Assembly: GCA_021324975.1 (NCBI GenBank)
Contig: JAJPIA010000101.1
Span: 13,924-77,923 of the forward strand
DNA length: 64,000 nucleotides
DNA from: Bacillota bacterium
Lineage (GTDB): Bacteria; Sysuimicrobiota; Sysuimicrobiia; Sysuimicrobiales; Segetimicrobiaceae
Reading direction: 5' to 3'
Shown one piece after another: positions 23,510-49,397 of the stretch. How positions within the stretch are numbered: the first letter of the stretch is position 1; each line of letters opens with the position of its first letter. The position numbers and the translations under genes are program-made. The notes beneath the pieces were generated by a model. The model saw nothing but the letters and a program-made list of their open reading frames with translations. It was not told where the DNA came from and did no database searches.

Positions 23510-23514
23510 TGTGT

Positions 23515-24039: not shown

Positions 24040-24048
24040 GATCGCCCC

Positions 24049-24808: not shown

Positions 24809-27221
24809 GTGAAGAGAATGGCGGCCGCGTGGTCGAGCAAATCCACGACTCCTGCTTGCCTGCAGACCGGTTTCGGCCGTTTCGGTGAAGCCCTTCCGTT
24901 GGACGGCCAGATCAGCTGCGGAGCCACGGCTATCACCATGTCGGTGCTGTGGCTCATCAAGAATCGCTTCACACAGCTTCGACCATCACCCCGGTCGGCC
25001 CACGTAGCCGAGGACCTGGTCCGTGTGTTCGACGGTCTCGCGTATGCGAACGTGGGAGGGCAGATTATCGCCGAAGACTGGTATCGATACGCCGTCGAGA
25101 CGTACCTTGCGTTGAAAGGAATAGGACGAGGCCGATTGGAGATCTGTCGCCGGGTCCCCGCACTCGAGTGGTTCGCGAAGATGAATCAAAATCAGACAGT
25201 CGTCAATTTCGCGGTCGGGTGGTATGGCTCTCCCAAGGATTCGGACACCTTCCAACGCCATGGTCAACACTGGCTCACGCTGCTCGACCAGGATCCCGAT
25301 AGCGGTGTCCTCACGGTCAACAACCCGATGCCGCGGACATTTCCCGGCACGGCCGCCCAAAACCCCCAACACCTCAGAGCGACGCCATTCGAGGGTAGGA
25401 CCAACCCGGCGCTTCCCCGCGAGGACTTCCTTCAAATTGCGACGGTTCGCGCGCACTCGCACGGCCGGCGAGCCGGCATTCTTGAGACGGGGTATGCGTG
25501 GACGATCCACGAGAGCGCGTTACCGTCAGCGGCCGGTTACACTCCTGACGCCTGCGAACTCGAAACGCTGCGCTACATCAACGGCGAGTTCGCCGACTTG
25601 GAGGTGATCGCCCCGCTGGAAGGACGCGGCGGCATCCTCAAATGGGGGCGAGGGAAGCTCATCCTGGCGAATACGAACACGACGACCGGAACCAATGAAA
25701 TTTACGAAGGACCGCTCGTAAGCATACACGCGTCCGAGACGCCCTTCGGCACCGGCACGATCAAGCTGTTCGGCGGCGGAGGCTTGGTGCTCAGCCCCAG
25801 GAACGGAGCCGGGGCGGGCGTGACGTCGCGTGTGGCCGGAGCGCCGCAGGGTGGCGTGGCATTTGGGGGCGGCAACAGCGTAGAGTTCGACCGCAATGGG
25901 CATGCGTCGCTCACGGTCACGTTGGGTGGATGGACGGACGGCAACACGGCGAATCTCACGCGATCGCACAGGGGGACGCTACGCGTCATCCCGGGCTCTG
26001 GGGTAGAGTCGCTTGGTCACGACGAGCGGTTGCTCGTCGCCGGCGAAGGTCGCAATCTGCCGCCCGTCACAAACGGCATGGTGGCGCCGTATGTCGTCGC
26101 GCAGGATCGGGATGGCTCGGGTGCGTTCCTACGCTACACCAAGAGGGATGGGTTCGTCTCTGCGACGATGTCGTCGTCTTCGACGATGCCGATCGACGAC
26201 TCAACCGACGACACCATCTACCATGTAGAAAGCGACCAGACCATCGCCGCCGGCAGAGAAGCGAAGGCGTACGCGATGTGCCTTGATCCTCACCGCGTTG
26301 TCCGTGTGGCGGGCGATGCCGCGCTCCGGATCGGCAACGACAGGCGGTCTCCCGTGGCCGGGGTCATTCTCAACGGCGGGACGATTGCCGGCGGGACCTT
26401 GTCATTTGAGGATCGCGAGGGCCTGATTTATAGCGGTCAGCGTGGTCCGGCCGCTGCGAGGATCACGAGCGACATCTCGGGCTGCCGGGGGATCACGTTC
26501 TTCGGGCCCGGCGAGATCAGGCTGGACGGGGCGAACTGGTATCGCGGCGGCACCGAGATCCATTCAGGCTGGGTCGTCGTGGAGAACACAACCGGCACGG
26601 GGCTGGGGAGTGACGACGTCCTGGTCCGGACCGGCGGAACCCTGGTCATTCACGCCGGGGCCCGTGTCGCGGGCAAGGTGAGCCTTGAACGGGGCTCACA
26701 CCTCATCCTCAAAGGCGGCGCAATCGGGGGGTCTCGACATTAAGTATTCTGGCCACTCGGACAAGGGCGGCATCCTGAAGGGCTTCGGCAATGTTGTCGG
26801 GGCCTCGGAAGTGTCGGGAACGATCCGCGCCGGACGGACGATCGGGACCCTCACGTTCGAAGACCGGGTCTTGTTCGCCACGACCTCATTTTACTGGACA
26901 CTGGTCAGGCTCGACGACGCCGACGCGCACGCGGGTGTGTACTGGAATGCCCTCAGGTTTCGTGGCCCGGCGAAGCTCGGCGCCGAGGGAGACGGCTTTT
27001 TCGTGCTGCTGCATTTTCAGGACGTTCCCGATCCCGACAGCAGCCATCCGTTCTGGCGCCGAGAGCACCGGTGGCTGCTGGCTCAATTCGACGCCAGCCC
27101 GTACGAGTGGTTGGTGAATTCTCCCCGCGGGAATTTCGTGTTCGCGCACGGAACGTTTCGCGTCGAACCTGAGGGTGACCACCGAGCCTATCTCGTGTAC
27201 AAGCCGGCGCCTGCACACTAG
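24809..27221 (+). pseudogene. large protein with N-terminal C39-like papain-fold cysteine-peptidase domain and C-terminal autotransporter-associated beta-strand (PATR-like) repeats; reading frame broken at a G6 tract
   Basis: The N-terminus has QISCGATAITMSVLWL (Cys) and HGQHWLTLLD (His), as in C39-like peptidases. The C-terminal half carries Gly/Thr-rich beta-repeats (GTIKLFGGGGLVL, GGTLSFEDREGLIYSG, TGGTLVIHAGARVAGKVSL). The ORF ends at 26743, but a -1 change in GGGGGG (26726-26731) joins it in-frame to ORF 26685..27221 (...GGAIGG|LDIKYSGHSDKGGILKG...). Confidence 0.6.
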
Positions 27222-29893
27222 AGAGCCCGCACAGCCTGGCCGCCCGACCAGTCGGCCTCGGCGAGCGCGTACCTCACGGCCTGTTCGAGCGTCATCGCGC
27301 GCCCCTCGGCAATCCGTGCGGTCGCCGCGTCATCGCCAAGCGCTGAGCGCAGTCCCCGGAGGACGTCGCCGACGTTCGCGTTGACCCTGCTGACCGGCAG
27401 GCGCAGACCGAACGCCTTGAGTCCCGCCTCCGCGGCGCCGAGAAGGCGCGCGGCACGCTCGGCCTGTCCCCGCGCGGCCTCAAGCAAACCGATATCTTCG
27501 AGGCCGGCAATCATCCCCATCCTGTGTTTGACCTCCCGCCAGATTGCGAGCGCGTCCCTGTGCAGCTGCCAGGCGGTGTCGTAAGCGCCCTCACGAAGGG
27601 CCACCACGCCGAGGTTACCGGTAACGTATCCGACGAGCCATTTGTTGCCGGTTTCGCGGCATAGCATCAGGCTCTCCGTGTAAAATGTGCGCGCCGCGGC
27701 CAGGCGCCCCTCGGCGGCCGCCAGATAACCGAGGCTGTTCAGCACTCGGGCCAGATCGTTCTTATCGTCCGCCGCCGCAAACAGACGCCGCGCCTCATTG
27801 AGGAACGCGGCCGCCCGCCCAAAATCGCGCCGCCAAAATGCCAGTCTGCCAAGCCCGTGCAGGGCGTCGGCCGCACCAAGACCGTCCTCGAGCGATCGGG
27901 CGATGGCCAACGCCTGCTCCAACGCCGCCTGCGCTGCGGCAGCATCCGCGAGGACGGTGGCCGAGTAACCGATGTACCGGAGCGCGCGGGCTTTGAGAAG
28001 CGGTGGCGATTCCCCCGTCCGGAGGGCGATCGCGAGCCGCTCTCGCGCCTCGCGATGATGGCCGCGCACGTACCAGAACCACCACAACGCACAGGCCAGC
28101 CGGAGGCCCGGTTCGGCCTCTGCGGACGCGGCGCACCAGTGCAGCGCGCCCCGAAAGTTATCATGCTCGGCTTCAAGCCGGTCCAACCACGCTACCTGCG
28201 CCGGCCCGCGAATTTCCGGCTCCGCCTGCTCCGCCAGCGCCAAGTACCAGTCTCGGTGGCGTCGCAGAACGTCCACGGCCTCCTGAGACTGCTGCAGCTT
28301 ATCGTGGCCGTATTGGCGTATACTCTCGAGGAGCCGGTACCAGCCGCATCCCTCACGTTCGTCGAACAGCACGAGCGACTTGTCCACGAGGCGCGTCAGC
28401 AGTTCGAGAACGTCGTCTTCTTCCAGACCGCCTCCGCCGCAGATCTGCTCGGTCGCTTCCAGCGTGAAATCTCCGGCGAACACGGAAAGCCGCCGAAACA
28501 GGATGCGCTCACGTTCCGATAAGAGGTCATGGCTCCAATTCAGCATTGCCCGCAGTGTTTGGTGTCGTGGGAGCCCCGTCCGGCTGCTGCTTGTGAGCAG
28601 TCGAAAGCGATCGTCCAACCTCGTCGCGATCGAGTCGACCGACAGGACCTTGACCTGCGCCGCCGCCAGCTCGATCGCGAGAGGAATCCCGTCCAGACGG
28701 CAGGCCACCTGCGCGACCGCGGGCGCACTGCTGCTCGTCAAGCGAAATCCCGGCCGGCTCAGCGCCGCCCGCTCGACGAACAGGCGCACGGCTTCATACC
28801 CCAGCAACTCCTCGACCGGCGGTAGGGCCTGGAGATTGGGAGCCGACAGCGACGGAACACGCCAGACGACCTCGCCCGACACGCCCAACGGTTCGCGGCT
28901 CGTCGCGACAATCCGCAGCCCGGCGCAGGCGCCCAGCAGGACCGCGGCCAGTTGCGCGGCCCCGGCGAGCAGATGCTCGCAATTGTCGAGGATGAGGAGC
29001 AGCGACTTGGGATGCAGCGCGTCAACCAGCGTATCGGTCAACGAGCGGCGCGGTTGCTCGGGTATGCTGAGCGCCGACGCGACCTCCTTCGCGATCAAAT
29101 TTGCGTCCGACAATGCGGCCAGCTCGATCAGCCACGCGCCGTCAGGGTAGCGGCTCACGAGTTCGGAGGCAACTCGGAGTGCGAGTCTCGTCTTGCCGAC
29201 CCCCGCGCTGCCCGTCAACGTGACCATGGCCGTCTCCGATAACGACCGCTTGAGCTCCGCGACCTCCCGCTCACGTCCAATGAAGCTCGTCAGCTGGCGA
29301 GGGAGGTTGTTGAGGAGGGCGTCCAGCGACCGGAGAGGTGGAAACACAGGCATCAAGTCCGAGCCCGTCACCTGAAACAGTCGTTCAGCGCGGGCCAGGT
29401 CTCTGAGCCGGTGAGCGCCGAGGTCGCGCACGCCCAGCCCTCGGGGCAGATCCGTCTCCACGAGCGCGTGAGTCGCCGCCGACAGCAGAATCTGTCCTCC
29501 ATGGGCGGCATCGCAGATCCGGGCAGCCCGGTGCACGTCCATGCCCTCATACCCGGTCTCGGTCATCACGGGCTCTCCCGTGTGCAGCCCCATCCGCACT
29601 CTGACGATCGCCTGCTCCGGCCAGGTATGAGCCGAGAGTGCCCGCTGGGCCGCCACGGCGGCCGCCACCGCGTCGCGCGCGCGTGAGAATGCGACGAAGA
29701 ATGCGTCTCCCTCGGTACTGATCTCACGTCCGTGCCACTCTTTGAACGCGGCCCGCAGCAACCGATGGTGGTCGGTCACGACGCTGACGTAGCGATCGCC
29801 AAGATCCTCGAGTAATCGCGTGGACCCCTCGATGTCGGTGAAGAGAAGGGTAACGGTTCCAGCCGGCACACGAGTCATCGGCGGCCTCCCCAC
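27218..29893 (-). CDS. class III adenylate/guanylate cyclase domain fused to STAND/AAA+ NTPase and TPR repeats
   Basis: N-terminal cyclase homology domain (VTLLFTDIEGSTRL...GDAFFVAFS...RMGLHTGE), a Walker A motif (GSAGVGKTRLAL), and a long C-terminal TPR/helical repeat region; 891 aa. No C-terminal LuxR HTH is detected. Confidence 0.85.
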   Translation of the reverse strand: MGRPPMTRVPAGTVTLLFTDIEGSTRLLEDLGDRYVSVVTDHHRLLRAAFKEWHGREISTEGDAFFVAFSRARDAVAAAVAAQRALSAHTWPEQAIVRVRMGLHTGEPVMTETGYEGMDVHRAARICDAAHGGQILLSAATHALVETDLPRGLGVRDLGAHRLRDLARAERLFQVTGSDLMPVFPPLRSLDALLNNLPRQLTSFIGREREVAELKRSLSETAMVTLTGSAGVGKTRLALRVASELVSRYPDGAWLIELAALSDANLIAKEVASALSIPEQPRRSLTDTLVDALHPKSLLLILDNCEHLLAGAAQLAAVLLGACAGLRIVATSREPLGVSGEVVWRVPSLSAPNLQALPPVEELLGYEAVRLFVERAALSRPGFRLTSSSAPAVAQVACRLDGIPLAIELAAAQVKVLSVDSIATRLDDRFRLLTSSSRTGLPRHQTLRAMLNWSHDLLSERERILFRRLSVFAGDFTLEATEQICGGGGLEEDDVLELLTRLVDKSLVLFDEREGCGWYRLLESIRQYGHDKLQQSQEAVDVLRRHRDWYLALAEQAEPEIRGPAQVAWLDRLEAEHDNFRGALHWCAASAEAEPGLRLACALWWFWYVRGHHREARERLAIALRTGESPPLLKARALRYIGYSATVLADAAAAQAALEQALAIARSLEDGLGAADALHGLGRLAFWRRDFGRAAAFLNEARRLFAAADDKNDLARVLNSLGYLAAAEGRLAAARTFYTESLMLCRETGNKWLVGYVTGNLGVVALREGAYDTAWQLHRDALAIWREVKHRMGMIAGLEDIGLLEAARGQAERAARLLGAAEAGLKAFGLRLPVSRVNANVGDVLRGLRSALGDDAATARIAEGRAMTLEQAVRYALAEADWSGGQAVRAL

Positions 29894-29957
29894 CGCTCAC
29901 GACGCACGGCCGCGCCAATCCAAGACTGTCCCGTCGTGAGTCGATCCTATTGGGTAG

Positions 29958-30653
29958 TCACTCGTTCACCGACCGCGGTAGACGCCGGCGCAATTCGCCC
30001 GGCTTGAGCACGGCCACGACGCCGCGGCGGCATTGCACCAACCCTTCGTCGGCCAGCAGTCGAAGCCACCTGTTGACGCTCTCACGCGTTCCCCCCACCA
30101 CTTCCGCGAGCTCCTCCTGAGTCAGCTGGGGTGGGCCCAAGGTGCCGTCCGGCCCGCGCCGCTCGCCTGCCTCGGCCAGCGTCAGGAGCACCTTGGTCAA
30201 GCGCGTGGGACCGTCCAAGAACACCGCGTCGTGCAGGAGGTCCGTCGTCCGCCGCAGGCGGCGACTCAAGGCAGCGAGGAGGGCCGCGGCGGTATCCGGA
30301 TGGCGCCGTAAAAATGTGAGAAAGTGCTCGCGCTCCAGCGCAAAGAACTTTGATGGCGCCCGTGCGGTCGCCGTGGCCGATCGCTCGCCACCGTCGAGGA
30401 GGGCGAGTTCGCCGAAGAACCCACCCGGGCCGAGTAGTGCCAGGATGATCTCCCGGCCCTCGGGAGACATAATGGTCAGCTTGACTTCGCCGGAGTGAAT
30501 CAAGTACAGAGTTGCTCCGGGGTCTCCTTCCGAGAAGACGACGGCGCCCTTCCGGTAGGTGCGAGGCCGAAACAGCTGGGCGAGGGCGTCGGATTCCGCC
30601 GTCGATAGTCCGGCAAAGAGTGGGGTCTGCGCGAGAATGCGCTCGACGGACAT
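29958..30653 (-). CDS. Crp/Fnr family transcriptional regulator (cNMP-binding + HTH)
   Basis: cNMP-binding beta-barrel motif (GEVKLTIMSPEGREIILALLGPGGFFGELAL) and a C-terminal HTH (TQEELAEVVGGTRESVNRWL). Confidence 0.9.
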   Translation of the reverse strand: MSVERILAQTPLFAGLSTAESDALAQLFRPRTYRKGAVVFSEGDPGATLYLIHSGEVKLTIMSPEGREIILALLGPGGFFGELALLDGGERSATATARAPSKFFALEREHFLTFLRRHPDTAAALLAALSRRLRRTTDLLHDAVFLDGPTRLTKVLLTLAEAGERRGPDGTLGPPQLTQEELAEVVGGTRESVNRWLRLLADEGLVQCRRGVVAVLKPGELRRRLPRSVNE

Positions 30654-30779
30654 ATCCCCCTCTAGCCCGCATGGCTTATCGCCAATTATACACTAGGCCT
30701 GGGAACTAGGCCTGGGACATCGGCGCCGCCGGTCTGTATCGGTATCGCGTCGGGGCCAACATGCGCGGGCCGCGGATGC

Positions 30780-36320: not shown

Positions 36321-37601
36321 GTGGCGGGACCCACGAGCATTATCAAGGCGGGGTTGCTGATCGACGGGCGCGGCGGGCCGCCGCAGCGCGACATGGCGGT
36401 CATCGTCGAGGGCAACCGCATCACGGACGTACGCCCGGCCGCCACGCTCGAGCCGGTGGGCGATCGCATCGTGGTGTACGATCACCCGGCGTGCACACTC
36501 CTGCCAGGGCTCATCGATGCGCACGACCACATCGCACACTTGGGGCTGGACCTCCGGCGGCGCATGAACACCGCGCCCAGCCTGGCTGTATTGCAAACGG
36601 GCCGGTGGGCGACGGAGACGCTGCTGGCGGGCATCACCACGTTTCGCGATGCCGCCGGCGCGGATCTCGGCCTCAAGATGGCGATCGACCAAGGCGTCAT
36701 CCCGGGGCCGCGGATGTTCTTGAGCCTCGTGATCATCACGCAGACGGGCGGTCACGGCGACCTGACCCAGCCGTGCGGCTTGGCTTCCGACTTCCCGCAC
36801 CTGCCCGGCATCCCGGACGGCATCGCCGACGGCCCGGACGAGTGCCGGAAAAAGGTGCGCGAGGTCATCCGGCTGGGCGCCGACTGGATCAAGATTGCCA
36901 CCACGGGCGGCGTGGGCTCCCCCCGCGGGGGGCCGTCGACCCGGCAGTTCACGCTGGAGGAGCTCCGGGCGATGGTGGACGAGGCGCACGCGGCCGGTAA
37001 AGGCGTGATGGTGCATGCGCACGGCGGCGACGGGATCAAGATCTGCCTGGAGGCGGGGGTGGACTCGATCGAGCACGCGGCCGTCGCCGAGGAAGCGGAC
37101 ATCGAGCGCATGGCCCGGCTCGGCATCTGGCTCGTCCCGACGCTGAGCGTCACGGCCAGGATGAAGGAGCGCCTCGACGCGGATCCGCAGTCGTTGCCCT
37201 GGTACACCGCCGCGAAGCTGCCGACCGTGCTGCAGACCCAGCGGCGCAACTTTCGCCACGCGCTGGAGTGCGGCGTCAAGATCGCGATGGGGACGGACGC
37301 CGGCGCGCTCGGGCACGCGGAGAACGCCCGGGAGCTCGTCTACATGACCGACAGCGGCATGACGCCGATGCAGTCGATCGTGGCGTCCACGAGCATGGCG
37401 GCCAAGCTGCTCGGCATGGGGGACGTGCTCGGCGCCGTCGCCCCCGGGATGCTCGCGGACCTCATCCTGGTTGACGGGGATCCGCTCGCCGACATCCGCG
37501 TCGTGGCGGACCCGCAGCGTATCAAGCTCGTGATGAAGGACGGGGTCCTGTATAAAGCACCGGCATCCCTGCGGGCCGGGGCGCTGACGGGGAGGGCATA
37601 G
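36321..37601 (+). CDS. amidohydrolase family metallo-hydrolase (imidazolonepropionase/prolidase-like)
   Basis: HxH metal-binding motif LIDAHDHIAH, then HAHG and IEHA motifs, and an N-terminal composite beta-domain. Confidence 0.85.
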   Translation: MAGPTSIIKAGLLIDGRGGPPQRDMAVIVEGNRITDVRPAATLEPVGDRIVVYDHPACTLLPGLIDAHDHIAHLGLDLRRRMNTAPSLAVLQTGRWATETLLAGITTFRDAAGADLGLKMAIDQGVIPGPRMFLSLVIITQTGGHGDLTQPCGLASDFPHLPGIPDGIADGPDECRKKVREVIRLGADWIKIATTGGVGSPRGGPSTRQFTLEELRAMVDEAHAAGKGVMVHAHGGDGIKICLEAGVDSIEHAAVAEEADIERMARLGIWLVPTLSVTARMKERLDADPQSLPWYTAAKLPTVLQTQRRNFRHALECGVKIAMGTDAGALGHAENARELVYMTDSGMTPMQSIVASTSMAAKLLGMGDVLGAVAPGMLADLILVDGDPLADIRVVADPQRIKLVMKDGVLYKAPASLRAGALTGRA

Positions 37602-37602
37602 C

Positions 37603-38469
37603 ATGCGCAAGTGGAGCCTCGCGCTCATGAGCTATAAGGAGATTGCCGCGATCCCGAAGGCGCGATCCGTCCTGCTCCTGCCGATCGGCTGCGTCGAACA
37701 GCACGGTCCGGCCGGCTTCACCGGCGCGGACACCATCCTCGCAGAGTACGTGTGCCGGCACACTGCCGAAGCGCTGGAGCACGTCTACGTCGCGCCGCCC
37801 CTGTGGTTCGGGTACACGCCCTATACCGCATTCCCCGGCACGGTCACGCTCCGGCTCGAGACGCTGCGCGCGGTGATCCAGGACGTCCTCGATGGATACT
37901 TCTCTCACGGCTTTCGCCATTTTGTCCTCGTCAACAACCACGGCCCGAACGAGGCTGCGATCGAGCCGGTCGCGAGAGAGATGCAGCAGCGGCACGGACT
38001 GATCCTCAGCATCCTCTACCCGTGGCAGCTCGCCTACCACGTCGCGCGTGACATCACGCCCGATGCCGACCAGGTGTACGGGCACGGGGGCGAGCCGACG
38101 ATCTCGGTCATGATGGCGCTGGCGCCCGAGGCCGTCACCCGGGACGGACATCCTGAGCGCCGCGGGTACGTGCCGAGCGACGGTCCCATCGCGGTCACCT
38201 CCTACCGTGGCGCAAGATTCCAGGGATTTGAGGTGGGGCTGTTCAGCGACGTGACGACGGTGCTTCCGAGCGGCGCCAGCGGGGAGTGGACGGTCGCCTC
38301 CGAGCAGCGCGGGCGGCAGATCCTGGAGCGCCTGGTCGCGTACGCCCGCGAGTTCGTGCCGGCGTACCTGCGCCTGAGTCAGGAAGCGCAGCGGCGGCAC
38401 GGTTCGGCTGAGAAGGCAACGGGCGCACCGGGGCGCGGCCGGGGGAGATTGCCGCCTGTGATCGAATGA
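37603..38469 (+). CDS. creatininase (creatinine amidohydrolase) family protein
   Basis: Motifs LLPIGCVEQHGP, VNNHGPN and GHGGE. Confidence 0.85.
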   Translation: MRKWSLALMSYKEIAAIPKARSVLLLPIGCVEQHGPAGFTGADTILAEYVCRHTAEALEHVYVAPPLWFGYTPYTAFPGTVTLRLETLRAVIQDVLDGYFSHGFRHFVLVNNHGPNEAAIEPVAREMQQRHGLILSILYPWQLAYHVARDITPDADQVYGHGGEPTISVMMALAPEAVTRDGHPERRGYVPSDGPIAVTSYRGARFQGFEVGLFSDVTTVLPSGASGEWTVASEQRGRQILERLVAYAREFVPAYLRLSQEAQRRHGSAEKATGAPGRGRGRLPPVIE

Positions 38470-38539
38470 CCACGTAGCGGGAACCGGGCCGCGCACAAGG
38501 GAGACGCCGGATCTGCCGCGCCGTACGAGGAGGTGGGCA

Positions 38540-39352
38540 TTGCCAAAGCACCGGCTGGACGAGATGTCCTGGAAAGAGGCCGAGGAGGCGTTCAAGCGGT
38601 CGGACACGGTTGTCATGGCGGTGGGCACACTCCACTCCCACGGCCCCACGCCGATCGGGATCGACACGAGCTCGGTTGCGCGGATCGCGGACGAGGTGGG
38701 CAAGCGCACCGGCCTCGTTACGCTGCCGCCCATGCCCTACGGTGAGAACGACAAGATGGCGCTCTATCCCGGGTCGATCACCATCAGCCCCGACGTGATC
38801 GAAGGCGTGTATACCGACATCTGTGAGAGCCTCTGCCGGAACGGCGTGCGCAAGGTGATCTTTCTCAACGGCCACGGCGGGAATCGCGAACCCCTGACCC
38901 GCACCGGCCGCAACGTACGGGAGCTCGGCATGCTCATCGCCGTCCTGGAGTGGTGGAACATCGGCAAAAAGATCGCGCCGAACGCCTTCCCGGAAGGCAC
39001 CCATATCTGGGAGCTCGCCGTGGCCTTGGCCGTCGGCGGGACAGAGGTCGCGGACGTGCGCTCCGGCGGCTACAAAGGCGAGTGGGGCGCCAACCCGCCG
39101 CTGCGGCCCCTCTTCGGGGACAAGATCAAACCGCTCGGCTTCAGCAATTTCGAATACCGCGGCGCGCCCGTGATCATCCCCGTGGATTCCTGGGACGTGG
39201 ACGTGGAGAGCCCGCCCGAGATCGACAAGGCGTCCCTCGAGGCGCTCAGGCGCCGTGGCGAGGAGTCGATCGAACGCATCGTCGAGCACATCGTCGCGTT
39301 CGTCCGGGACTTCGAGAAGCTGGATCCGGCGAAAGCGCTGCGGGCCGACTAG
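38540..39352 (+). CDS. creatininase family protein (paralog)
   Basis: AVGTLHSHGP and FLNGHGGN motifs; a divergent tandem paralog of the previous gene. Confidence 0.8.
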   Translation: MPKHRLDEMSWKEAEEAFKRSDTVVMAVGTLHSHGPTPIGIDTSSVARIADEVGKRTGLVTLPPMPYGENDKMALYPGSITISPDVIEGVYTDICESLCRNGVRKVIFLNGHGGNREPLTRTGRNVRELGMLIAVLEWWNIGKKIAPNAFPEGTHIWELAVALAVGGTEVADVRSGGYKGEWGANPPLRPLFGDKIKPLGFSNFEYRGAPVIIPVDSWDVDVESPPEIDKASLEALRRRGEESIERIVEHIVAFVRDFEKLDPAKALRAD

Positions 39353-39394
39353 CGGCGGCCTCGGCAGCGGGCCCGCGGGGAGGATCGGCCCTAC

Positions 39395-40882
39395 GTGCCT
39401 CGGCGCGGCGGCAGCAGGCGAACGTCCACCCACGGTCACCGGCAGGTTGCGGCCGGGCCAGACGCGGCGACCACTGCGTACCCGCTCACGTTCGACCGGG
39501 GCTCGTTGCGCCTGGACGCGCCGGAGTCCGCCAGGGTCCCGGCGTACCTCGTCTGGGATTCAAGAGTTCAGGCATGGCGCACCGAGGCGTTTCGGCACTT
39601 TCGCCTCAAGGAAGACGCCGCTGCATACCACATCGACGTCGCGGACGAGGCCGAGCAGTTCTTCCCCTGCCCCTCGCTCACCGTCACCTTGCCGCCCCTC
39701 AGGCCGGATCAAGAGGCCGCGATCAGCGCGTGGGAACGCGCGGGGTGCCGTGGGGTTGTGGTCAAGCCAACCGGCACCGGCAAGACAGAGATCGCCCTCG
39801 CGATCGCGGCCAGACACCGATGCTCGACGCTCGTGGTCGCACCGCTACGTGATTTGATGTACCAGTGGCAACGGCGAATCAAACACAGCCTCGGCGTCGA
39901 CGCGGGCGTGCTGGGCGATGGGCGGCGCGAGATCTGGCCGATTACCGTCACCACGTATGACAGCGCCTGGATCCACATGAAGACGATCGGAAACCGGTAC
40001 CGGCTGATCGTGTACGACGAGGCCCACCATCTACCTGGGCAAACGCTTCACGAGAGCGCCCTTGACTGCCTGGCGCCGTTGCGCCTCGGTCTTACGGCAA
40101 CGCCGGAGCGTGCGGATGGCAGAGACCGCCTGCTGGATACCCTCATCGGGCCGTGCGTGTACGAAGAGCGCATCCGCGACGCCCGCGGGCGAACCGTGGC
40201 CGGGTACTCGATCGTTCGTGTGCCCATCTACCTCACCGAGTCCGAACAGGCGGAATACGACCGATTGTCGAGACGGATCCGCGGATATGTGGCAAAGCGT
40301 CGCCGTGAGGGCGGACGCTTTGACTGGAAAGAGGATATCGCCAAGTTGTCGCGGACCGACCCAGAGGCGAAGGACGTCATGCAATGCTACCACCGCAAAC
40401 TCGCGCTGGCGCACCGGTCCGCCGAGAAGCTGCGCGTGATGGAGGATATCTTCCGCCTGCACCCCGCCGAGCAGTGCGTCATATTCACGGCGTCGAATCG
40501 CATGGCGCTGGATGTATCCGTGAGGTTCCTCATTCCGGCGCTGACGGCCCACTCGGACAAGCGCGAGCGAAACGCGATCCTGGACCTTTTCGCGCAGGGA
40601 AAGATTCGGGCCCTCGCTGCCTGCGAAGTTCTCAACGAGGGGTGGGACGCCCCCGGGGTCAAGATCGGGGTCGTCCTCGGCGGCGAGAAGGGGACGCGGG
40701 AGGCGACCCAGCGGCTGGGCCGCCTTCTGCGGAAGTTTGGCGACCGCGCGGCCAGGTTGTACGAAGTCATCGTCGAGGAGACGTCCGACCAGCGCCGAGC
40801 GCGGCAGCGTACCAGGACCGATGCTTACCAAGGCGCACCGCGTCTATCACTGGGACAGGCTCAGCAACTCGATCTTCTCTGA
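39395..40882 (+). CDS. SF2 DEAD/DEAH-box helicase, XPB/Ssl2-like
   Basis: Walker A VVKPTGTGKTEIAL, DEAH (LIVYDEAHHL), TATPER, helicase C-terminal motifs, and an N-terminal region compatible with a damage-recognition domain. Confidence 0.8.
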   Translation: MPRRGGSRRTSTHGHRQVAAGPDAATTAYPLTFDRGSLRLDAPESARVPAYLVWDSRVQAWRTEAFRHFRLKEDAAAYHIDVADEAEQFFPCPSLTVTLPPLRPDQEAAISAWERAGCRGVVVKPTGTGKTEIALAIAARHRCSTLVVAPLRDLMYQWQRRIKHSLGVDAGVLGDGRREIWPITVTTYDSAWIHMKTIGNRYRLIVYDEAHHLPGQTLHESALDCLAPLRLGLTATPERADGRDRLLDTLIGPCVYEERIRDARGRTVAGYSIVRVPIYLTESEQAEYDRLSRRIRGYVAKRRREGGRFDWKEDIAKLSRTDPEAKDVMQCYHRKLALAHRSAEKLRVMEDIFRLHPAEQCVIFTASNRMALDVSVRFLIPALTAHSDKRERNAILDLFAQGKIRALAACEVLNEGWDAPGVKIGVVLGGEKGTREATQRLGRLLRKFGDRAARLYEVIVEETSDQRRARQRTRTDAYQGAPRLSLGQAQQLDLL

Positions 40883-42026
40883 CCGGTTGGAGGAGGACTG
40901 CGTCCCGCTCCTCGCACGGGGCATCGCCGTGTACCGCGCCCGCATCGGAGACCGGCTCGGGCTGGTACGCAATGCGGCGCGCACGGTCCTCCAGGGACTC
41001 CGCCCAGATCGAATCGAGGCGGCGATCGACCTCCTCGACGAGGTCGCAACCTACGAGTGGCCGCGGGGCGGGCGCCAGGGCGACGAGAGGGTCAAGATCT
41101 TCGCGGCCGCCGCGGACGCCCATCCGCTCCTCGATCCAGAATCCCGGGGAGCCATACTGGGACCGGCGCTTGGCGAATCGGTCTTCCCCGACGGCGGGCT
41201 CACGGCGCGCCTCTACGCCGATTATCCGGAGTTTCATCGACTGACGGCGTTTCCGGAAACCTACTCCGCGGCGGATCTGCGCGATGACTACGACCTGGCG
41301 CAGGCTCAGGCGCTTCTCTACGACGCCACCGCCGTCGAGGTCGATGCCGGGGCCGATCTGAAGCATATCGTCCAGTACGCGCGGCTCTCGCGTCTGCTCC
41401 ATCGCCTCGAGCGACTCGCCGACGGCCGGTATCGGCTGTCGTTCGACGGGCCGAACTCCGTCCTCCGCCGAACGCACGCCTATGGAGTCGATTTCGCGAA
41501 ATTTCTGGCGGCCCTCGTCCAGGCGCGCGACTGGCAGATCACGGCCAGGGTCGCGATCCACGCACGCGCGCGGCCGGCGCTGTACCGGCTCTCGTCCAAG
41601 GACGGCCTGCGGTCGCGGCTGGCGCCGCCCTCGCTCTTCGATTCGGACCTCGAGGAAAAGTTCGCCGAGAAGTTCGGCGCCGTCCGCAATGACTGGCGCC
41701 TCGGCCGAGAGACGATGCTGCTGGAAGCGGGGACGTCACTCCTCGTGCCGGACTTTTCCTTCCGCCACGCGGACGGGACAGAGGTCGCGATGGAGATCGT
41801 CGGGTATTGGACGCCGGAGTATCTCGCGAGGAAATTCCGCAAATTGGCGGTGATCCACGGCGTCAATCTAATCGTGGCCGTACGCCGTCAGTGGGCGCTT
41901 GCGGCCGGCGACCCGCCTCCGTGGGTGCTGCCGTTCAAGACCGCCATTCTGCTGAAGGACCTGATGCCGCGTCTTGAGGCATTTCGGCGACAAGCGCCAC
42001 GCCTCGGGCGCCCTCGAGGGGATTGA
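40821..42026 (+). CDS. DUF790 family protein (Bax1-like nuclease partner of XPB-type helicases)
   Basis: ATG at 40821 (MLTKAHRVYHWDRL...); about 400 aa. Positional conservation with the helicase and a 62-nt overlap with it. Family assignment is from memory. Confidence 0.65.
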   Translation: MLTKAHRVYHWDRLSNSIFSDRLEEDCVPLLARGIAVYRARIGDRLGLVRNAARTVLQGLRPDRIEAAIDLLDEVATYEWPRGGRQGDERVKIFAAAADAHPLLDPESRGAILGPALGESVFPDGGLTARLYADYPEFHRLTAFPETYSAADLRDDYDLAQAQALLYDATAVEVDAGADLKHIVQYARLSRLLHRLERLADGRYRLSFDGPNSVLRRTHAYGVDFAKFLAALVQARDWQITARVAIHARARPALYRLSSKDGLRSRLAPPSLFDSDLEEKFAEKFGAVRNDWRLGRETMLLEAGTSLLVPDFSFRHADGTEVAMEIVGYWTPEYLARKFRKLAVIHGVNLIVAVRRQWALAAGDPPPWVLPFKTAILLKDLMPRLEAFRRQAPRLGRPRGD

Positions 42027-42082
42027 GCACCTTCAGGCCGGGGAACGCACGAACCCCTGGCCGCTCGTGCACAGCGTTCAAC

Positions 42083-42778
42083 TCAGGTCTCCGTCGGCAT
42101 GTGCAGGTACATCGACTGCAGCGCGATGCGCCCCGGCCCCGTGAAGCGGTTCCAGCACAGGCTGCCGGCGCTCGCGAAGAGGCCGGTCGAGATCTTCTGG
42201 AAGAGCGTCTGCATCTGCACGGTGCGGTCCTTGTAGATCCAGCCGCCGGGCTCGATGTCGATCTGCTCGCGGGCGCCGAGCGTCAGCGTGAAGACGTTGC
42301 CGTAGCCGTGCAGCCAGAGAATCCCATCCGAGCGGGTGCACGTAAAGGTGTCGATAAAGAAGCCCGTTCCGCCGAGCAGGATATTCGCCACGCCTTTGAC
42401 GCGGTTGAACGTATAGTCCAGGGGATCGGTGGCGGCGAGGAACTGATGCTCGCGGACGTCGACCGCCTCCCCCGGCTTCATGTGGAGCGCGAAGACGTGC
42501 CCCGCCCCATCCCGGCTGAACGCGATGCGGCCCGCGCCCTGCGTCTGGGTGACGAACACGGGCATCCCGGAGAGGACCCGCCGCACCGCGCCCCGGAGCG
42601 GCTTGATCGCAATAGCGACGGACGGGTCCTTCCACAAGAGAATATGGTGCTCGAAGTACACCGGGACGGTCCCGAGCTCGACGTGCAGCACGGGCACCAG
42701 CTCGCCTTCGATGTGGTACGTGACGCCGCCGTAGGTCTCGTCCCGCGCCTGGGTCGGAAGCAGCGACGGTACCGGCAT
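42083..42778 (-). CDS. AIM24/DUF124 (TIGR00266) family protein
   Basis: GGVTYHIEGELVPVLHVELG...FEHHILLW...GTGFFIDTF motifs. ATG at 42778 with a GGGGGGTG RBS. Confidence 0.8.
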   Translation of the reverse strand: MPVPSLLPTQARDETYGGVTYHIEGELVPVLHVELGTVPVYFEHHILLWKDPSVAIAIKPLRGAVRRVLSGMPVFVTQTQGAGRIAFSRDGAGHVFALHMKPGEAVDVREHQFLAATDPLDYTFNRVKGVANILLGGTGFFIDTFTCTRSDGILWLHGYGNVFTLTLGAREQIDIEPGGWIYKDRTVQMQTLFQKISTGLFASAGSLCWNRFTGPGRIALQSMYLHMPTET

Positions 42779-42931
42779 GTCGGACACCCCCCATGAGCAT
42801 CGGTTGATCGCACAGTCTTATGGCCATGTTGGCGCACGTATAGACCAAGCCGCGCGGGCGCACAGGCGGTGCAGGGCCGCGGGTACGACCCGGGCCACAC
42901 CGGGAAAAATGACGGTATCAATCGGGCTTCG

Positions 42932-43714
42932 ATGGCCCGGCACGGAGTGATCGAGACGAGATCGACGGGTGTGCATCGCGTGCTGGCCGCCGCCATCGTG
43001 ATCGCCGCCGTGGCGTCCGCATGGAGCGGGCTCGCGCCGAGGCCGGCAGCGGCGCTGCCCGTGGCCGACACCGGCGTGCTCCGGCCGGTGTTCGCCCGCC
43101 TGCTCGGACACCCATCCGTCCTGCGCATCGACGCGGTGCCCGATTTGTACCGGGGCGGCTACGCCCGCATCAGCGTCTATGCGGAGAACGCCAGCGTCGA
43201 CCGGATCCGGATCGACCAAACCTGGATCCGCCTCACCGGCGCGAGCCTCGATCCAAGCAAGCTCCGGCACGGCGCGCTGCGCGTCCTCAGCCTGCGGGGC
43301 AGCGCCGTGTACACGCGCGTCAGCCGCGCGAACGTGGAAGACTATCTGGACCGCCTGGGGCTGGCGAAGCACATCAAAGTGACGGGCGCGGGACAGTCGA
43401 TCATCGTCCAGGGCACCGTCTCCCGGCAAGGCGTGGATCTGCCGCTCCGGCTGCAGGGCGTCTTTGCCGTGAAGGACACGCCGGAGCTGTTCTTCCATAT
43501 CGAGCGGATCACCGTGAACTCGATGCCCGTGCCCACCCTGCAGATCGATCAGCTCGAGCGCCGGTTCAACCCCGTGCTTGACTTTCGGAAGTGGCCGGTG
43601 CAGTTTCCGATCCGGGTGTTCCGCGCAACGGCCGACGGCTTTGTGCTGAGCAGTCTGACCGACGCGACGTCGCTGTGCGATGGGTGTGGCAGCACCGCGC
43701 CCCGGGGGCTGTGA
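42932..43714 (+). CDS. hypothetical secreted protein
   Basis: Signal-like HRVLAAAIVIAAVASAWSGLA and a beta-rich body. The start is uncertain (ATG at 42932 or GTG at 42971). Confidence 0.45.
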   Translation: MARHGVIETRSTGVHRVLAAAIVIAAVASAWSGLAPRPAAALPVADTGVLRPVFARLLGHPSVLRIDAVPDLYRGGYARISVYAENASVDRIRIDQTWIRLTGASLDPSKLRHGALRVLSLRGSAVYTRVSRANVEDYLDRLGLAKHIKVTGAGQSIIVQGTVSRQGVDLPLRLQGVFAVKDTPELFFHIERITVNSMPVPTLQIDQLERRFNPVLDFRKWPVQFPIRVFRATADGFVLSSLTDATSLCDGCGSTAPRGL

Positions 43715-46481: not shown

Positions 46482-48107
46482 TTACCCCTTCTTAAGAGAC
46501 GCACCGTGGAAGAAAACGTTCGTTGCCGACCAGTCGAGCACCACGCCGTCGAGGCGGTTCTTCTGATAGGCGAAGAGATTAAGCGGGTCGGCGTACCCGA
46601 TCATCACGGACTCCCGCAGCGTCTTCATCTGGATCTGGGAGTAGAGTTGTTTGCGCTTCGCGAGATCCGTGGTGGCGGCCGCCTGGTCGATCAGCTTGTC
46701 CATCTCGGCGTTCTTGTAGCGGTTCCGGTTCGTCCCGCCGTCGGCGTTCTTGGAGTACAGCAGGATGCGCACGACGTCGGGATCCGTGTCGGGCTCCCAC
46801 CAGAACTGCAGGTTGTGCTGGCCGACGCGCACCGCCGAGAAATAGCCGCCCTGGGACAGGCCGTGGAGGTTGATCTTGATCCCGATCTGCGCGTACATGC
46901 TCTGGAGAAACGTCGCCATGGCCGTGAAGTCGGAGTTGTCGGCGCGGTAGTAGAGCTCGAGCGCGAGGTCCTGTCCGCCCTTCTGGCGCACGCCCCCGGA
47001 ACCCATCTTCCAGCCGGCCTCGTCCAGCACGGCCCCGGCCTGCTTGGGATCGTACCGGTAGACATTGCGCGTGGCGGGATCGTACCCGAACGTCGACGCC
47101 GTGAGGATGCTGCTGGCCGGCTTGAACACGCCCTGCCACACCGCCTTGATCATCGCGGTCTTGTCGATGCCCCACTGCAGCGCCTGCCGGACGCGGACGT
47201 CGTCGGTCGGCGGCTTCGTGACGTTGATCATCATCGTCCAGCCCGAGCCCGTCATGAGGCCCTGGAGCAACTGCAGGTTCGGGTCCCGCTGGACGTTCTG
47301 GTACTCCTGGGTCGGCACGTCCTGCATGATTTGGACCTCGCCGGACTTGAGCGCGGCGAGCCGGGTCGACGACTCCGGGATGATGCGGTACGTGATCGCA
47401 TCGAGGTACGCCGGTCCCCGGGTCTTGAAGATCGACGGCGCCCATCGATAGTCCGGGTTGCGGACCATGCGCACCGCGCTGTCGGTCGTGTAGGAATCGA
47501 ACTTGAACGGGCCCGTGCCAACGGGGTGCGTGCCGAAGTCCTTGCCGTACTTCTTGACCGCGTCCGGCGACACGGGCGCGAGCAGCGATTGCGCCACGGA
47601 GCTCAGAAACGGGGCGTACGGGTCCTTGAACTTGACCACCACCGTGTACGGATCGACGACCGTGCTGCTGTCGTACGGCCCGATCGCCGAGAACGCCGAC
47701 TGCGACTTCAAGCTGGGATCCACGATGCGGTCGAACGTGAACTTGACCGCCTCGGCCGTGAACGCGGTGCCGTCGTGGAACTTCACGTCGCGCCGGAGGT
47801 GGAAGGTGTACTGGGTGGCGTCCGCGTTGACCTCCCATCGCTCGGCCAGGCCGGGCACGAACGTCCCGGCCTTGGACTCCCAGACGAGCGGGTCGAAGAT
47901 ATGGTAGGCCATGCGCGCCACGTCGGAAAACGTCGTGATGTTGGGATCCAGCGTGTCGAACTTGTTGGTGAGGCCATAGAACAGCTCCCCGCCCTGGGCG
48001 CCCGCCGCCCGGGCGCGGCCGCTTGTGCCGGCGACCCCGCCAAACCCCATCGCGAGGCCGGCCGCGGCCGCGCGCACGAACGACCGCCGCGACATCCGGG
48101 CCGGCAT
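46482..48107 (-). CDS. ABC transporter substrate-binding protein, family 5, Tat-signal
   Basis: MPARMSRRSFVRAAAAGLAMGF twin-arginine signal followed by an SBP_bac_5 body. The track ORF 46482..49211 is a read-through artefact. Confidence 0.85.
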   Translation of the reverse strand: MPARMSRRSFVRAAAAGLAMGFGGVAGTSGRARAAGAQGGELFYGLTNKFDTLDPNITTFSDVARMAYHIFDPLVWESKAGTFVPGLAERWEVNADATQYTFHLRRDVKFHDGTAFTAEAVKFTFDRIVDPSLKSQSAFSAIGPYDSSTVVDPYTVVVKFKDPYAPFLSSVAQSLLAPVSPDAVKKYGKDFGTHPVGTGPFKFDSYTTDSAVRMVRNPDYRWAPSIFKTRGPAYLDAITYRIIPESSTRLAALKSGEVQIMQDVPTQEYQNVQRDPNLQLLQGLMTGSGWTMMINVTKPPTDDVRVRQALQWGIDKTAMIKAVWQGVFKPASSILTASTFGYDPATRNVYRYDPKQAGAVLDEAGWKMGSGGVRQKGGQDLALELYYRADNSDFTAMATFLQSMYAQIGIKINLHGLSQGGYFSAVRVGQHNLQFWWEPDTDPDVVRILLYSKNADGGTNRNRYKNAEMDKLIDQAAATTDLAKRKQLYSQIQMKTLRESVMIGYADPLNLFAYQKNRLDGVVLDWSATNVFFHGASLKKG

Positions 48108-48275
48108 GTCGCAGCGCCGGGGCTCCTCCTCAGATCGACCGGTGCGCATTGTCATCTGCCCCACCCTCCCCGTCGTTCTTCCGCGATCTCGCGACCGCGC
48201 CGGCGCACGCCCGCCCGGCCGGAACTCTCGCCGTTCTCTTCGAATAAAGAGGGGCGATGTCCTCGGAGGTGCCCT

Positions 48276-49397
48276 ATGCGGAACTCGGTGCTTCGAATCG
48301 GCGTGCTGGGAGCGGGCAACTGGGCGCGCGCCGCGCATGTTCCCGGGTGGCGGCGCGATCCGCGCGCCGAGGTCGCCGTGATCTGCGACCCGGAGGTGGC
48401 GCGCGCCCGGGACCTCGCGGCGCAGTTCGCGATCCCCGAAGCGGCGGCGGACTGGCAGGGCGTCGTCGGCCGTTCGGACCTCGATGTGATCGACATCGCG
48501 ACGCCGTCCCACACCCATCTGGAGCTGGCGCGGGCGGCAATCGAGGCGGGGAAGCACGTCCTGTGTGAAAAGCCGGTCGCCTACGACTTCCGGCAGACCC
48601 GCGACCTGGCCGCGCTCGCCCGCCGGCGGGGTCTCAAGACAAAGCTCGGCTTTACGTTCCGATACAGCCCCGGCGTCCTGTACGCCAGGTCCCTGCTGGA
48701 CGAGGGCTTTGCCGGCCGGCCGTTCGTGTTCAACGGATACGAGCAGAATTCGCAGTGGCTCGACCCCGCGGTGCCGCTCCGTCAGGTCGATCACACCGCG
48801 GATCAGACGGCGCTCAGGACGTCGTCGCTCGAAGGGTACGGCGCGCCGATCATCGACATCGGGCACTGGTGGGTCGGCGCGGACTACACCCGCGTGGTCG
48901 GCACGATGCGCAACTTCATCTCCGAGCGCGTCGTGCGCGCGACCGGCCGCATGATGCGGATGAACATCGACGACGGCGACATCTTCATCGGGGAGTACGC
49001 CAACGGCGCCATCGGCTCGATCCAGACCAGCTACGTCACGATCGGCAACTACCCCGGCGTGGAGGCGCGGCTCTACGGTGAGCGGGGCGCCGTCATCTGC
49101 CGGCTGGTGGAGGAGGCCGGCGTCGCGGAGACGATCAGGACCGCGACGCCGGACGCGGTCGAGTTCAACGTGCTGGAGATCCCGCAGCGATTCTACCCGC
49201 CGGGCGGCCACCCGCGCGAGTCGTGGCGCTCGCTGTTCTATGCCAACCTCATCCGGGACTTCATCGACGAGATCCGCGCCGGCGGGGCGCGCAACCAGGG
49301 CAACTTCGAGGACGGCGCGTGGGTTCAGGAAGTGATCAACGCGGTCGAGCGCTCGTACCGCGAGGCCCGGTGGGTCTCGCTGCCGCTCGAGGCCTGA
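48276..49397 (+). CDS. Gfo/Idh/MocA family oxidoreductase
   Basis: LRIGVLGAGNWARAAHVPGW Rossmann N-terminus plus EKP (CEKPVA). A GGAGGTG RBS lies upstream of the ATG at 48276. Confidence 0.85.
   Translation: MRNSVLRIGVLGAGNWARAAHVPGWRRDPRAEVAVICDPEVARARDLAAQFAIPEAAADWQGVVGRSDLDVIDIATPSHTHLELARAAIEAGKHVLCEKPVAYDFRQTRDLAALARRRGLKTKLGFTFRYSPGVLYARSLLDEGFAGRPFVFNGYEQNSQWLDPAVPLRQVDHTADQTALRTSSLEGYGAPIIDIGHWWVGADYTRVVGTMRNFISERVVRATGRMMRMNIDDGDIFIGEYANGAIGSIQTSYVTIGNYPGVEARLYGERGAVICRLVEEAGVAETIRTATPDAVEFNVLEIPQRFYPPGGHPRESWRSLFYANLIRDFIDEIRAGGARNQGNFEDGAWVQEVINAVERSYREARWVSLPLEA

Follow-up and report, generated by a model that had tools for sequence, protein, structure and literature searches.

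A bacterial XPB-Bax1 gene pair with a dual-coding overlap and a candidate sliding-clamp-binding motif at the helicase C-terminus

The window analyzed here is a 64,000-nucleotide (nt) stretch of bacterial contig JAJPIA010000101.1. Within it, two overlapping genes on the forward strand encode a helicase that resembles archaeal XPB and a Bax1-type (DUF790) endonuclease. The segment shared by the two genes is conserved in both reading frames, and in one bacterial clade it furnishes the helicase with a C-terminal tail that ends in a candidate binding motif for the beta sliding clamp. The two genes and the parts of their overlap on which this analysis turns are listed below, with positions counted from the first letter of the window.

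39395 to 40882, + strand: helicase gene (archaeal-type XPB by similarity), GTG start, 495 amino acids, TGA stop at 40880-40882
40821 to 42026, + strand: Bax1-type (DUF790) endonuclease gene, ATG at 40821, stop at 42024-42026, 401 amino acids
39379 to 39384, + strand: possible ribosome-binding site GGAGGA, 10 nt 5' of the helicase GTG, read from the sequence
40821 to 40882, + strand: dual-coding overlap of 62 nt, holding XPB amino acids 476-495 and the stop codon, with Bax1 amino acids 1-21 in the other frame
40829 to 40879, + strand: clade-specific C-terminal extension of XPB, amino acids 479-495, QGAPRLSLGQAQQLDLL, lying past the family-wide ...RRRxxDAY end
40865 to 40879, + strand: candidate beta sliding-clamp-binding motif QLDLL, amino acids 491-495, at the extreme C-terminus of XPB, its function proposed from the motif

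Both open reading frames (ORFs) lie where an earlier sequence-only reading had placed them, and the bax1 ATG at 40821 does fall 62 nt within the 3' end of the helicase gene. Identical proteins of 401 and 495 amino acids are annotated in public assemblies, and public records label the pair only as 'DEAD/DEAH box helicase family protein' and 'DUF790 family protein'. Other start codons were considered for each gene. A bax1 start at TTG 40737 was rejected because every one of the 120 closest homologues (120/120) opens with MLT at ATG 40821. A later start for XPB was likewise ruled out, the sole in-frame alternative being a TTG at codon 38, within the damage-recognition domain (DRD).

The helicase was compared with Pfam and NCBIfam profiles and with proteins of solved structure. 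Pfam assigned it an XPB_DRD domain together with ResIII/DEAD and Helicase_C, the two RecA-like domains; the cut-off for XPB_DRD (PF18458) is 26 bits. The top NCBIfam model was repair_heli_XPB, with a score of 148.5 bits that lies below the equivalog cut-off of 610. Among solved structures the best match was XPBII of Sulfurisphaera tokodaii (StXPB, PDB 5tnu; E 9.4e-85, query residues 41-472), and the second was XPB of Archaeoglobus fulgidus (AfXPB, PDB 2fwr; E 6.9e-75, query residues 30-474, with AfXPB aligned from residue 26). Next in this comparison came eukaryotic XPB at about 1e-11 and RadD at 9e-8, and other superfamily 2 (SF2) helicases were weaker. Since the best, nearly full-length matches are archaeal XPBs, the ResIII match represents merely the generic N-terminal SF2 module. 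Judged by full-length similarity, the helicase is an archaeal-type XPB, closest to XPBs and not to other SF2 subfamilies. Its recognizable elements are as follows.

39485 to 39652, + strand: DRD, amino acids 31-86 (Pfam PF18458, 2.6e-09, 37.2 bits, profile positions 1-57 of 57)
39773 to 39787, + strand: motif I (Walker A) GTGKT, amino acids 127-131, invariant in 24 homologues
40016 to 40027, + strand: motif II DEAH, amino acids 208-211, from motif reading and homologue alignment
40109 to 40117, + strand: equivalent of the RED motif, R-A-D, amino acids 239-241, aligned with StXPB R205-D206-D207
40265 to 40393, + strand: thumb-like (ThM) insertion, about amino acids 291-333, in a gapless, high-posterior alignment to StXPB 258-299
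40709 to 40723, + strand: motif VI QRLGR, amino acids 439-443, from motif reading and homologue alignment

Motif III reads TAT at amino acid 234. The RED equivalent, R239-A240-D241, has alanine in place of the central acid; D241 is invariant and R239 at least 90% conserved in the clade, and the same position reads R-[S/A/Y/Q]-D in bacterial relatives and R-D-D in StXPB. At the tip of the ThM insertion, W311 is invariant across the clade and F309 conserved in at least 90% of it, and the wedge residue of StXPB, F278, aligns with K312.

The second protein matched Pfam DUF790 (PF05626) at 2e-72 and 244.6 bits, against a cut-off of 28.8 bits, with residues 14-382 of the protein placed on positions 12-384 of the 387-position profile. 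NCBIfam EndNBax1 models were matched at about 1e-27 (97 and 95 bits), far under their equivalog cut-offs of 500, and solved Bax1 chains at 5e-22 to 2e-18. By these scores the window Bax1 is a distant member of its family, with no ortholog-level match to characterized archaeal Bax1. Residues of known importance were located by alignment to A. fulgidus Bax1 (AfBax1) and, for one residue, to SsBax1, and their conservation was read from 27-29 diverse DUF790 proteins.

41220 to 41222, + strand: Bax1 D134, equivalent to AfBax1 D133 (N-terminal active site / XPB interface), invariant
41652 to 41657, + strand: Bax1 E278-E279, first acidic motif FDSxxEExF of the PD-(D/E)xK / VRR-Nuc-like nuclease domain; AfBax1 E275 aligns with E279
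41751 to 41753, + strand: Bax1 D311 (PDF motif), equivalent to AfBax1 D305 and SsBax1 D301, invariant
41793 to 41795, + strand: Bax1 E325 (EIVGYWT motif), equivalent to AfBax1 E318, invariant

In the same set of proteins E278 is conserved in at least 90% of members. The position of AfBax1 E135 is occupied by Pro136 in the window protein, which is followed by E137. The C-terminal domain of archaeal Bax1 (residues 400-468 in A. fulgidus) is absent, as the window protein stops at amino acid 401, just past the nuclease domain; only family members of about 510 amino acids carry this extra domain. A crystallized S. tokodaii Bax1 that lacks its C-terminal domain (StBax1 deltaC) still binds XPB and DNA, and the domain is therefore dispensable for the core function.

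On the strength of these profile and structure matches, the two genes are almost certainly a bacterial version of the archaeal XPB-Bax1 helicase-nuclease pair. The sequence-only reading had proposed this pairing, with an SF2 helicase carrying motifs I, II, III and VI, and the proposal is supported. The four motifs are in place (GTGKT, DEAH, TAT and QRLGR), the XPB_DRD and DUF790 profiles are both matched above their cut-offs alongside the archaeal XPB and Bax1 structures, and the catalytic acids of the nuclease are kept, with AfBax1 E275, D305 and E318 corresponding to E279 (E278 adjacent), D311 and E325. That reading had also considered that the helicase might belong to a different SF2 subfamily, such as Res; the match to StXPB and AfXPB over nearly the full length speaks for XPB instead.

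Relatives were collected by a scan of one genome per species in a bacterial and archaeal collection, which yielded at least 578 genomes with a bax1 relative. Comparisons of loci were made on the best 80 of these, all of them bacterial. Clustered at 50% identity, the DUF790 members in a library of 1.84 billion representative proteins form 1902 groups. The named homologues of the pair come from Candidatus Rokubacteria / Methylomirabilota, and the source bacterium is itself of Rokubacteria/Methylomirabilota type. We distinguished a clade A, with Bax1 identities of 55-73%, found in Rokubacteria, Methylomirabilia, Ca. Sysuimicrobiota and metagenome-assembled genomes (MAGs) labelled Armatimonadota, Binatia or Firmicutes, and a clade B, with identities of 35-43%, found in Planctomycetota, Myxococcota, Acidobacteriota, Omnitrophota and Anaerolineales. 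The pair also occurs on Deinococcus megaplasmids and haloarchaeal plasmids, and it was not found in the phage genomes or viral contigs searched. In the window and in nearly all related loci with upstream sequence, bax1 lies directly 3' of XPB. A third recurring gene was sought by all-against-all clustering of the ORFs in the 80 loci, disregarding spurious antisense or alternative-frame ORFs inside XPB and bax1, and no other family appeared in more than six loci. As only XPB and Bax1 recur, the pair is a self-contained two-gene module.

The overlap between the genes proved to be of constant length within each group. Every one of the 29 distinct clade-A loci with both genes has an overlap of exactly 62 nt, and most clade-B loci have exactly 35 nt; in Deinococcus, a haloarchaeal plasmid and one further distant clade it is 14 nt. 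In every group compared, the XPB codons for D/N-A (GAT GCT or AAT GCT) contain the bax1 ATG. The groups differ in where the XPB frame ends. In clade B the XPB stop codon lies inside the Bax1 codons for Y-K/R, where the XPB frame reads TAT AAG as GTA TAA; in clade A the Bax1 codons at this place specify Y-H (TAT CAC), and the XPB frame continues to a TGA within the Bax1 S-D codons (TCT GAC). Because XPBs of other clades end near DAY, the simplest reading of the three lengths is that XPB stop codons were lost one after another, through which the XPB frame would have grown into bax1 from 14 to 35 to 62 nt.

Given the relation of the frames, codon positions 1, 2 and 3 of XPB coincide with positions 3, 1 and 2 of Bax1, and variability at the third positions of each gene can be compared inside and outside the overlap. 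In the 29 clade-A sequences the mean entropy at Bax1 third positions was 0.39 bits in the overlap versus 1.19 bits downstream (Mann-Whitney p=1.8e-6), and that at XPB third positions was 0.47 bits in the overlap versus 1.15 bits upstream (p=1.5e-5). The clade-B overlap displays the same suppression of wobble positions, with p about 1e-4. Among substitutions in the overlap that change only one product, 15 alter Bax1 only and 6 alter XPB only. Moreover, in nine clade-B loci the two genes have been parted by 26-1424 nt (three times by an MNT/HEPN pair), and both the XPB tail and the Bax1 N-terminus persist there, which indicates that both products matter. With its fixed length and its suppressed variability in both frames, the overlap is not incidental and lies far beyond chance, and we hold with high confidence that it is a dual-coding segment under purifying selection in both frames. 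The sequence-only reading had taken the overlap as a sign of coupled expression. What the comparison reveals is a conserved stretch that codes in two frames and from which the helicase gains a new motif at its C-terminus.

We then considered what the XPB frame encodes within the overlap. Homology to the archaeal XPB structures ends at amino acids 472-474, and the tail beyond is absent from them. The tail consists of 17 residues, small, polar and basic ones first and then a clamp-type pentapeptide, and the C-terminal peptide RLSLGQAQQLDLL contains Q491 and L495. This extension is conserved in 120 clade members, where the clade-A consensus beyond DAY reads Q-x-A-x-R-L-S-L-G-Q-A-x-Q-L-D-L-[F/L]-stop. 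It was not found in 120 XPBs of other archaeal and bacterial clades, which end at or just after ...RRRxxDAY. The last five residues of the 120 homologues are QLDLF in 59, QLDLL in 48 (the window included), QIDL[LF] in 8, QVDL[FL] in 3, and QLGLF and QGDLF in one each. The glutamine and the fourth-position leucine are invariant; position 2 is L, I or V with a single G, position 3 is D with a single G, and position 5 is F or L.

The canonical clamp-binding motif is Q-aliphatic-x-[L/M]-[F/L], with a hexamer form also in use, according to a 2024 review of bacterial sliding clamps (PMC11139829). The same review gives the Dalrymple consensus as QL[S/D]LF and QLDLF as the strongest-binding consensus peptide. 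In its tolerance profile the glutamine and the last two hydrophobic residues weigh most, position 2 takes other aliphatic residues, and position 3 is free with a slight preference for aspartate; clamp motifs at the C-terminus are known in Pol II and Pol IV (PMC11139829). The canonical motif fits the extreme C-terminus of 119 of the 120 homologues, and the variation of the XPB tail follows the tolerance profile position by position. Among approximately 2380 other ORFs of at least 100 amino acids in the 80 loci, none ends with the motif. A possible second clamp-type tail was noticed in one distant XPB (L090, 3-764), where a 30-residue read-through ends in ...DDLQQESALLF. This candidate was dropped: its 120 closest relatives end in ...DAY or ...RRHR, so the L090 tail is probably an isolated read-through.

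Codon choice in bax1 bears on whether the XPB terminus is itself maintained. TCT stands at Bax1 codon 19 in 24 of 29 loci and at codon 20 in all 29, although elsewhere in bax1 it is the rarest serine codon (3.8%), with TCG and TCC dominating. In the XPB frame TCT-TCT-GAC is read as ..C-TTC-TGA, that is, phenylalanine followed by the stop. At codon 19 the alternative TCC places leucine at the XPB terminus, and the preferred TCG would place valine there and is never seen. Accordingly the last XPB residue is F or L only, and the isoleucine or valine that other serine codons would produce never occurs. The serine at Bax1 residue 20 is particular to clade A. It occupies the proline position of the Bax1 PDRL motif, where proline is at least 90% conserved family-wide, and codon arithmetic shows that with any CCN codon at this place XPB would end in S, P, T or A. 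Proline has been lost where CCN would break the hydrophobic end of XPB, and Bax1 thus pays a visible price for the XPB C-terminus. At the level of codons, these nucleotide choices show that the XPB frame is being preserved. Taken together, the suppressed Bax1-synonymous sites, the rare TCT, the lost proline and the F/L-only terminus argue that the clamp motif is conserved under selection of its own.

From the motif we would give slightly better than even chances to the tail binding the beta sliding clamp. The mechanism that we envisage starts from the solved archaeal complexes, and we infer complex formation, substrate and polarity from homology to them. XPB, with its DRD, two RecA domains, RxD motif and thumb insertion, would bind distorted or forked duplex between helicase domains 1 and 2 (HD1 and HD2); the thumb would act as a wedge while ATP-driven 3'-5' translocation opens a bubble. 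The N-terminal domain of Bax1 would hold onto the XPB thumb and HD2, and its E-D-E metal site would nick one arm. The clade-specific tail would then dock XPB, and with it Bax1, onto DnaN clamps at replication forks, gaps, primer ends and nicks. With the XPB frame overprinted on bax1, the same 15 nt would encode the clamp peptide and part of the DNA-contacting N-terminus of the nuclease. Translation of XPB and bax1 may be coupled. One precedent for association with the clamp is the interaction reported for E. coli RecBCD. Taken as a whole, an XPB-Bax1 module whose tail tethers it to the bacterial sliding clamp is the explanation we favor, with moderate confidence. Opinion is evenly divided for us on the broader statement that an archaeal-type XPB-Bax1 was wired to the bacterial replisome in one clade, gaining its clamp motif by overprinting.

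Several considerations weigh against this interpretation. The motif assignment is a five-residue pattern that was recognized after the fact. The Bax1 N-terminus, which forms DNA-contacting beta-hairpins in the archaeal complex, itself imposes some of the conservation seen in the XPB frame, and the needs of translation initiation can also constrain synonymous sites near a start codon. No independent second origin of the motif was found; clade B, Deinococcus, the haloarchaea and the 120 other XPBs are all without it. An AlphaFold2 model of XPB, built from an alignment of 24 sequences that are all at least 70% identical, reached a predicted local distance difference test (pLDDT) score of 47.5 and a predicted template modelling (pTM) score of 0.32, and is uninformative on the conformation of the tail. 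To our knowledge, archaeal XPB-Bax1 has no established in-vivo role, so that 'repair' is itself an extrapolation. Finally, the Leu-ending variant of the motif, as found in the window, binds slightly less well than the Phe-ending one (PMC11139829).

The alternative that survives these data best is that of an ordinary XPB-Bax1 pair, in which the overlap is a by-product of a lost stop codon, QLDL[FL] is coincidental and non-binding, and the tail is conserved only by way of the Bax1 N-terminus and the initiation region. The whole family indeed conserves the Bax1 N-terminus (MLT..., ...DRL), a part that touches DNA in the archaeal complex. At 68% GC, stop codons are rare and read-through tails therefore common; the motif is confined to one clade, and five residues can match by chance. 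However, Bax1-synonymous positions are themselves suppressed threefold in the overlap. Bax1 also uses its rarest serine codon at codon 19, the one that yields the XPB phenylalanine, and has surrendered a near-invariant proline. Further points against this alternative are a terminal residue restricted to F or L, variation that tracks the tolerance of clamp motifs, and the lack of such an ending among the other ORFs of these loci. We regard the by-product explanation as doubtful.

A function in anti-phage or anti-plasmid defense, with the helicase and the PD-(D/E)xK nuclease degrading foreign DNA instead of repairing the genome, is considerably less probable. It draws on matches of the helicase to PADLOC PbeA models (3e-46) and to an NCBIfam Dnd restriction helicase, but these matches cover only the generic SF2 core, the best full-length match is XPB, and no PADLOC model matches Bax1. 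The pair moves among unrelated contexts, is carried on megaplasmids in Deinococcus and haloarchaea, and has received a toxin-antitoxin insertion in some Planctomycetota; in the window its GC content at third codon positions (GC3), 0.80, is below that of its neighbors. Yet those neighbors are metabolic, no recurrent defense genes lie nearby, and the phage and viral contigs held no copies. Some relatives adjoin repair genes (spore-photoproduct lyase, RecQ), and a clamp-binding tail would better fit genome maintenance.

Least probable of all, and by our estimate very improbable, is that the overlap serves mainly to control expression, through translational coupling, a fixed XPB:Bax1 stoichiometry or a programmed +1 frameshift fusion: the embedding of the ATG in the XPB D/N-A codons is universal across 14-, 35- and 62-nt overlaps, the archaeal proteins act as a 1:1 heterodimer, and purine-rich Arg/Lys codons just 5' could serve as a ribosome-binding site, but coupling needs only the short ancestral overlap and so explains neither the 27-nt extension nor the amino-acid-level constraint on the XPB terminus, separated gene pairs persist in nature, and a frameshift fusion was ruled out because no slippery sequence is visible in the overlap and the proteins are annotated separately everywhere.

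In the window, a beta-lactamase-like gene, an amidohydrolase and two creatininase-family genes lie on the 5' side of the pair and on the same strand, and on its 3' side a convergent AIM24-family gene; this agrees with the placement between creatininase genes and an AIM24 gene that had been described from the sequence beforehand. The arrangement of creatininases, AIM24 and an SDR gene is common only to the two closest relatives of the window. When 37000-43500 was scanned for promoters and terminators, neither a promoter-like site nor a + strand terminator came to light, and Rfam and tRNA scans of the window produced no matches. GC3 is 0.80 in both XPB and bax1 versus 0.86-0.92 in the flanking genes, which hints that the pair is compositionally distinct, either from past transfer or from weaker codon bias.

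Further observations concern the pair in other genomes. On plasmid P1 of Deinococcus gobiensis I-0 (L091, 2099-5858), a gene of the spore-photoproduct-lyase family lies directly 5' of the XPB/DUF790 pair, which is a UV-repair context in a radiation-resistant genus, and a 142-amino-acid ORF with no assigned function overlaps the end of the DUF790 gene by 4 nt. In six clade-B loci of Planctomycetota type, a RecQ gene with RQC and HRDC domains is found about 1.9 kb 3' of bax1 (e.g. L058, 4952-6772), and in four loci a SWIM + SNF2 helicase is found 3' of bax1 (L082, 5266-7695, and three others). The MNT/HEPN toxin-antitoxin pair is inserted exactly between XPB and bax1 in three Planctomycetota genomes (L049, 5225-6001; L051, 1844-2617; L058, 1183-1953), and around these insertions both the XPB tail SDAYERTxHRRDL and the Bax1 N-terminus are kept. 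Two loci (L003, 7979-8575, and L004, 746-1342) contain a 198-amino-acid ORF with no Pfam match that ends 8 nt before the XPB start; it occurs in a relative with 79% XPB identity and has no counterpart in the window. Two contigs of the Rokubacteria MAG CAVXVV01 (L014 and L015) carry one XPB-bax1 pair each, with identical tails; either the module has been duplicated or the bin mixes different strains. A natural fusion was also encountered: protein P0246 (957 amino acids) joins a full DUF790/Bax1 domain (amino acids 2-397) to a C-terminal SF2 helicase (ResIII + Helicase_C, no DRD), in a domain order opposite to that of the XPB-Bax1 operon.

Elsewhere in the window, the region 22000-30700 has a lower GC content, 0.62-0.66 versus about 0.70. 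It contains two - strand ORFs with no Pfam match (22697-23632 and 23515-24039), a + strand ORF of 644 amino acids with a weak PATR repeat match only (24809-26743), a - strand gene for an 891-amino-acid adenylate/guanylate cyclase + STAND NTPase + TPR protein (27218-29893) and, adjoining the latter, a - strand gene for a Crp-family cNMP-binding regulator (29958-30653). This segment may be a foreign or signalling island. A 909-amino-acid ORF on the - strand (46482-49211) has an SBP_bac_5 domain that spans only amino acids 450-821; its true start probably lies several hundred codons past the first start codon, an over-extension typical of high-GC DNA.

Structural and biochemical work on XPB-Bax1 is confined to archaea, yet relatives of this bax1 are present in at least 578 species-level genomes, and cultured Deinococcus carries the pair on plasmids. 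According to a 2012 paper on mycobacterial XPB, bacteria had yielded no XPB-Bax1 complex up to then; a review from 2026 continues to present Bax1 as a partner found in archaea, and in the literature searched Bax1 is described in archaea only. The conserved clamp-type tail supplies a hypothesis about where this helicase-nuclease machine works. If it is true, XPB-Bax1 would act at clamp-marked sites such as forks, gaps and nicks, and this would offer a first concrete indication of the setting in which the module works in vivo. The locus also provides a clean case of overprinting in nature, in which a short linear motif has arisen within the coding sequence of another gene and the cost is visible in the second protein as a rare codon and a lost conserved proline.

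The closest known systems are the archaeal complexes of S. tokodaii XPB2-Bax1 and A. fulgidus XPB-Bax1 (PDB 6P4F/6P4O/6P4W/6P66; DuPrez 2020, He 2020). The window pair shares with them the two families, the gene order, the short DRD, the full ThM and the SF2 motifs; its Bax1 has the N-terminal domain, CRD and nuclease region, the E-D-E residues and the invariant D134 at the XPB interface; and the bax1 start codon falls within the last XPB codons in both. It differs in its bacterial host and in an overlap of 62 nt versus about 14 nt. Whereas archaeal Bax1 has 468-500 amino acids, the window protein has 401, is missing the C-terminal domain of about 70-100 amino acids and has proline at the position of A. 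fulgidus E135. Unlike archaeal XPB, the window helicase has R-A-D as its RED motif and a 17-residue extension that ends in a bacterial clamp-type motif.

Within bacteria, the XPB of Mycobacterium tuberculosis (Rv0861c; Balasingham 2012, Biswas 2009) is likewise an XPB-family helicase with the SF2 motifs, and that enzyme is a 3'-5' helicase with a RED motif. However, it is eukaryote-like, with a long N-terminal domain, no DRD, a ThM that is much shortened or missing, and no known Bax1 partner. The pair on D. gobiensis plasmid P1 (DGO_RS15715/15720) is the same pair in the same order, but it has an overlap of 14 nt and an XPB tail, ...WEDVNAPH, with no clamp motif.

The best precedent for the proposed mechanism is EndoMS/NucS, a mismatch endonuclease of archaeal origin that acts in repair. 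In archaea its C-terminal PCNA-interacting peptide (PIP) motif binds PCNA, and in actinobacteria a five-residue C-terminal clamp motif ending in L-F binds DnaN and is needed for activity. As proposed for the window XPB, it is an archaeal-origin repair enzyme, acquired by bacteria, that has a clamp-type extreme C-terminus in them; unlike the window XPB, EndoMS/NucS belongs to an unrelated family, has no helicase partner and does not have its clamp motif in an overlapping gene. The clamp-binding polymerases Pol II and Pol IV also place a Q-aliphatic-x-L-[F/L] pentapeptide at a free C-terminus after a linker, although these are polymerases and the window protein is an XPB helicase. The literature searched held no report of an XPB-family helicase with a C-terminal clamp motif. 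The pair itself belongs to the known XPB-Bax1 kind; what is new is the overprinted and, on the codon evidence, selected tail with its canonical clamp motif.

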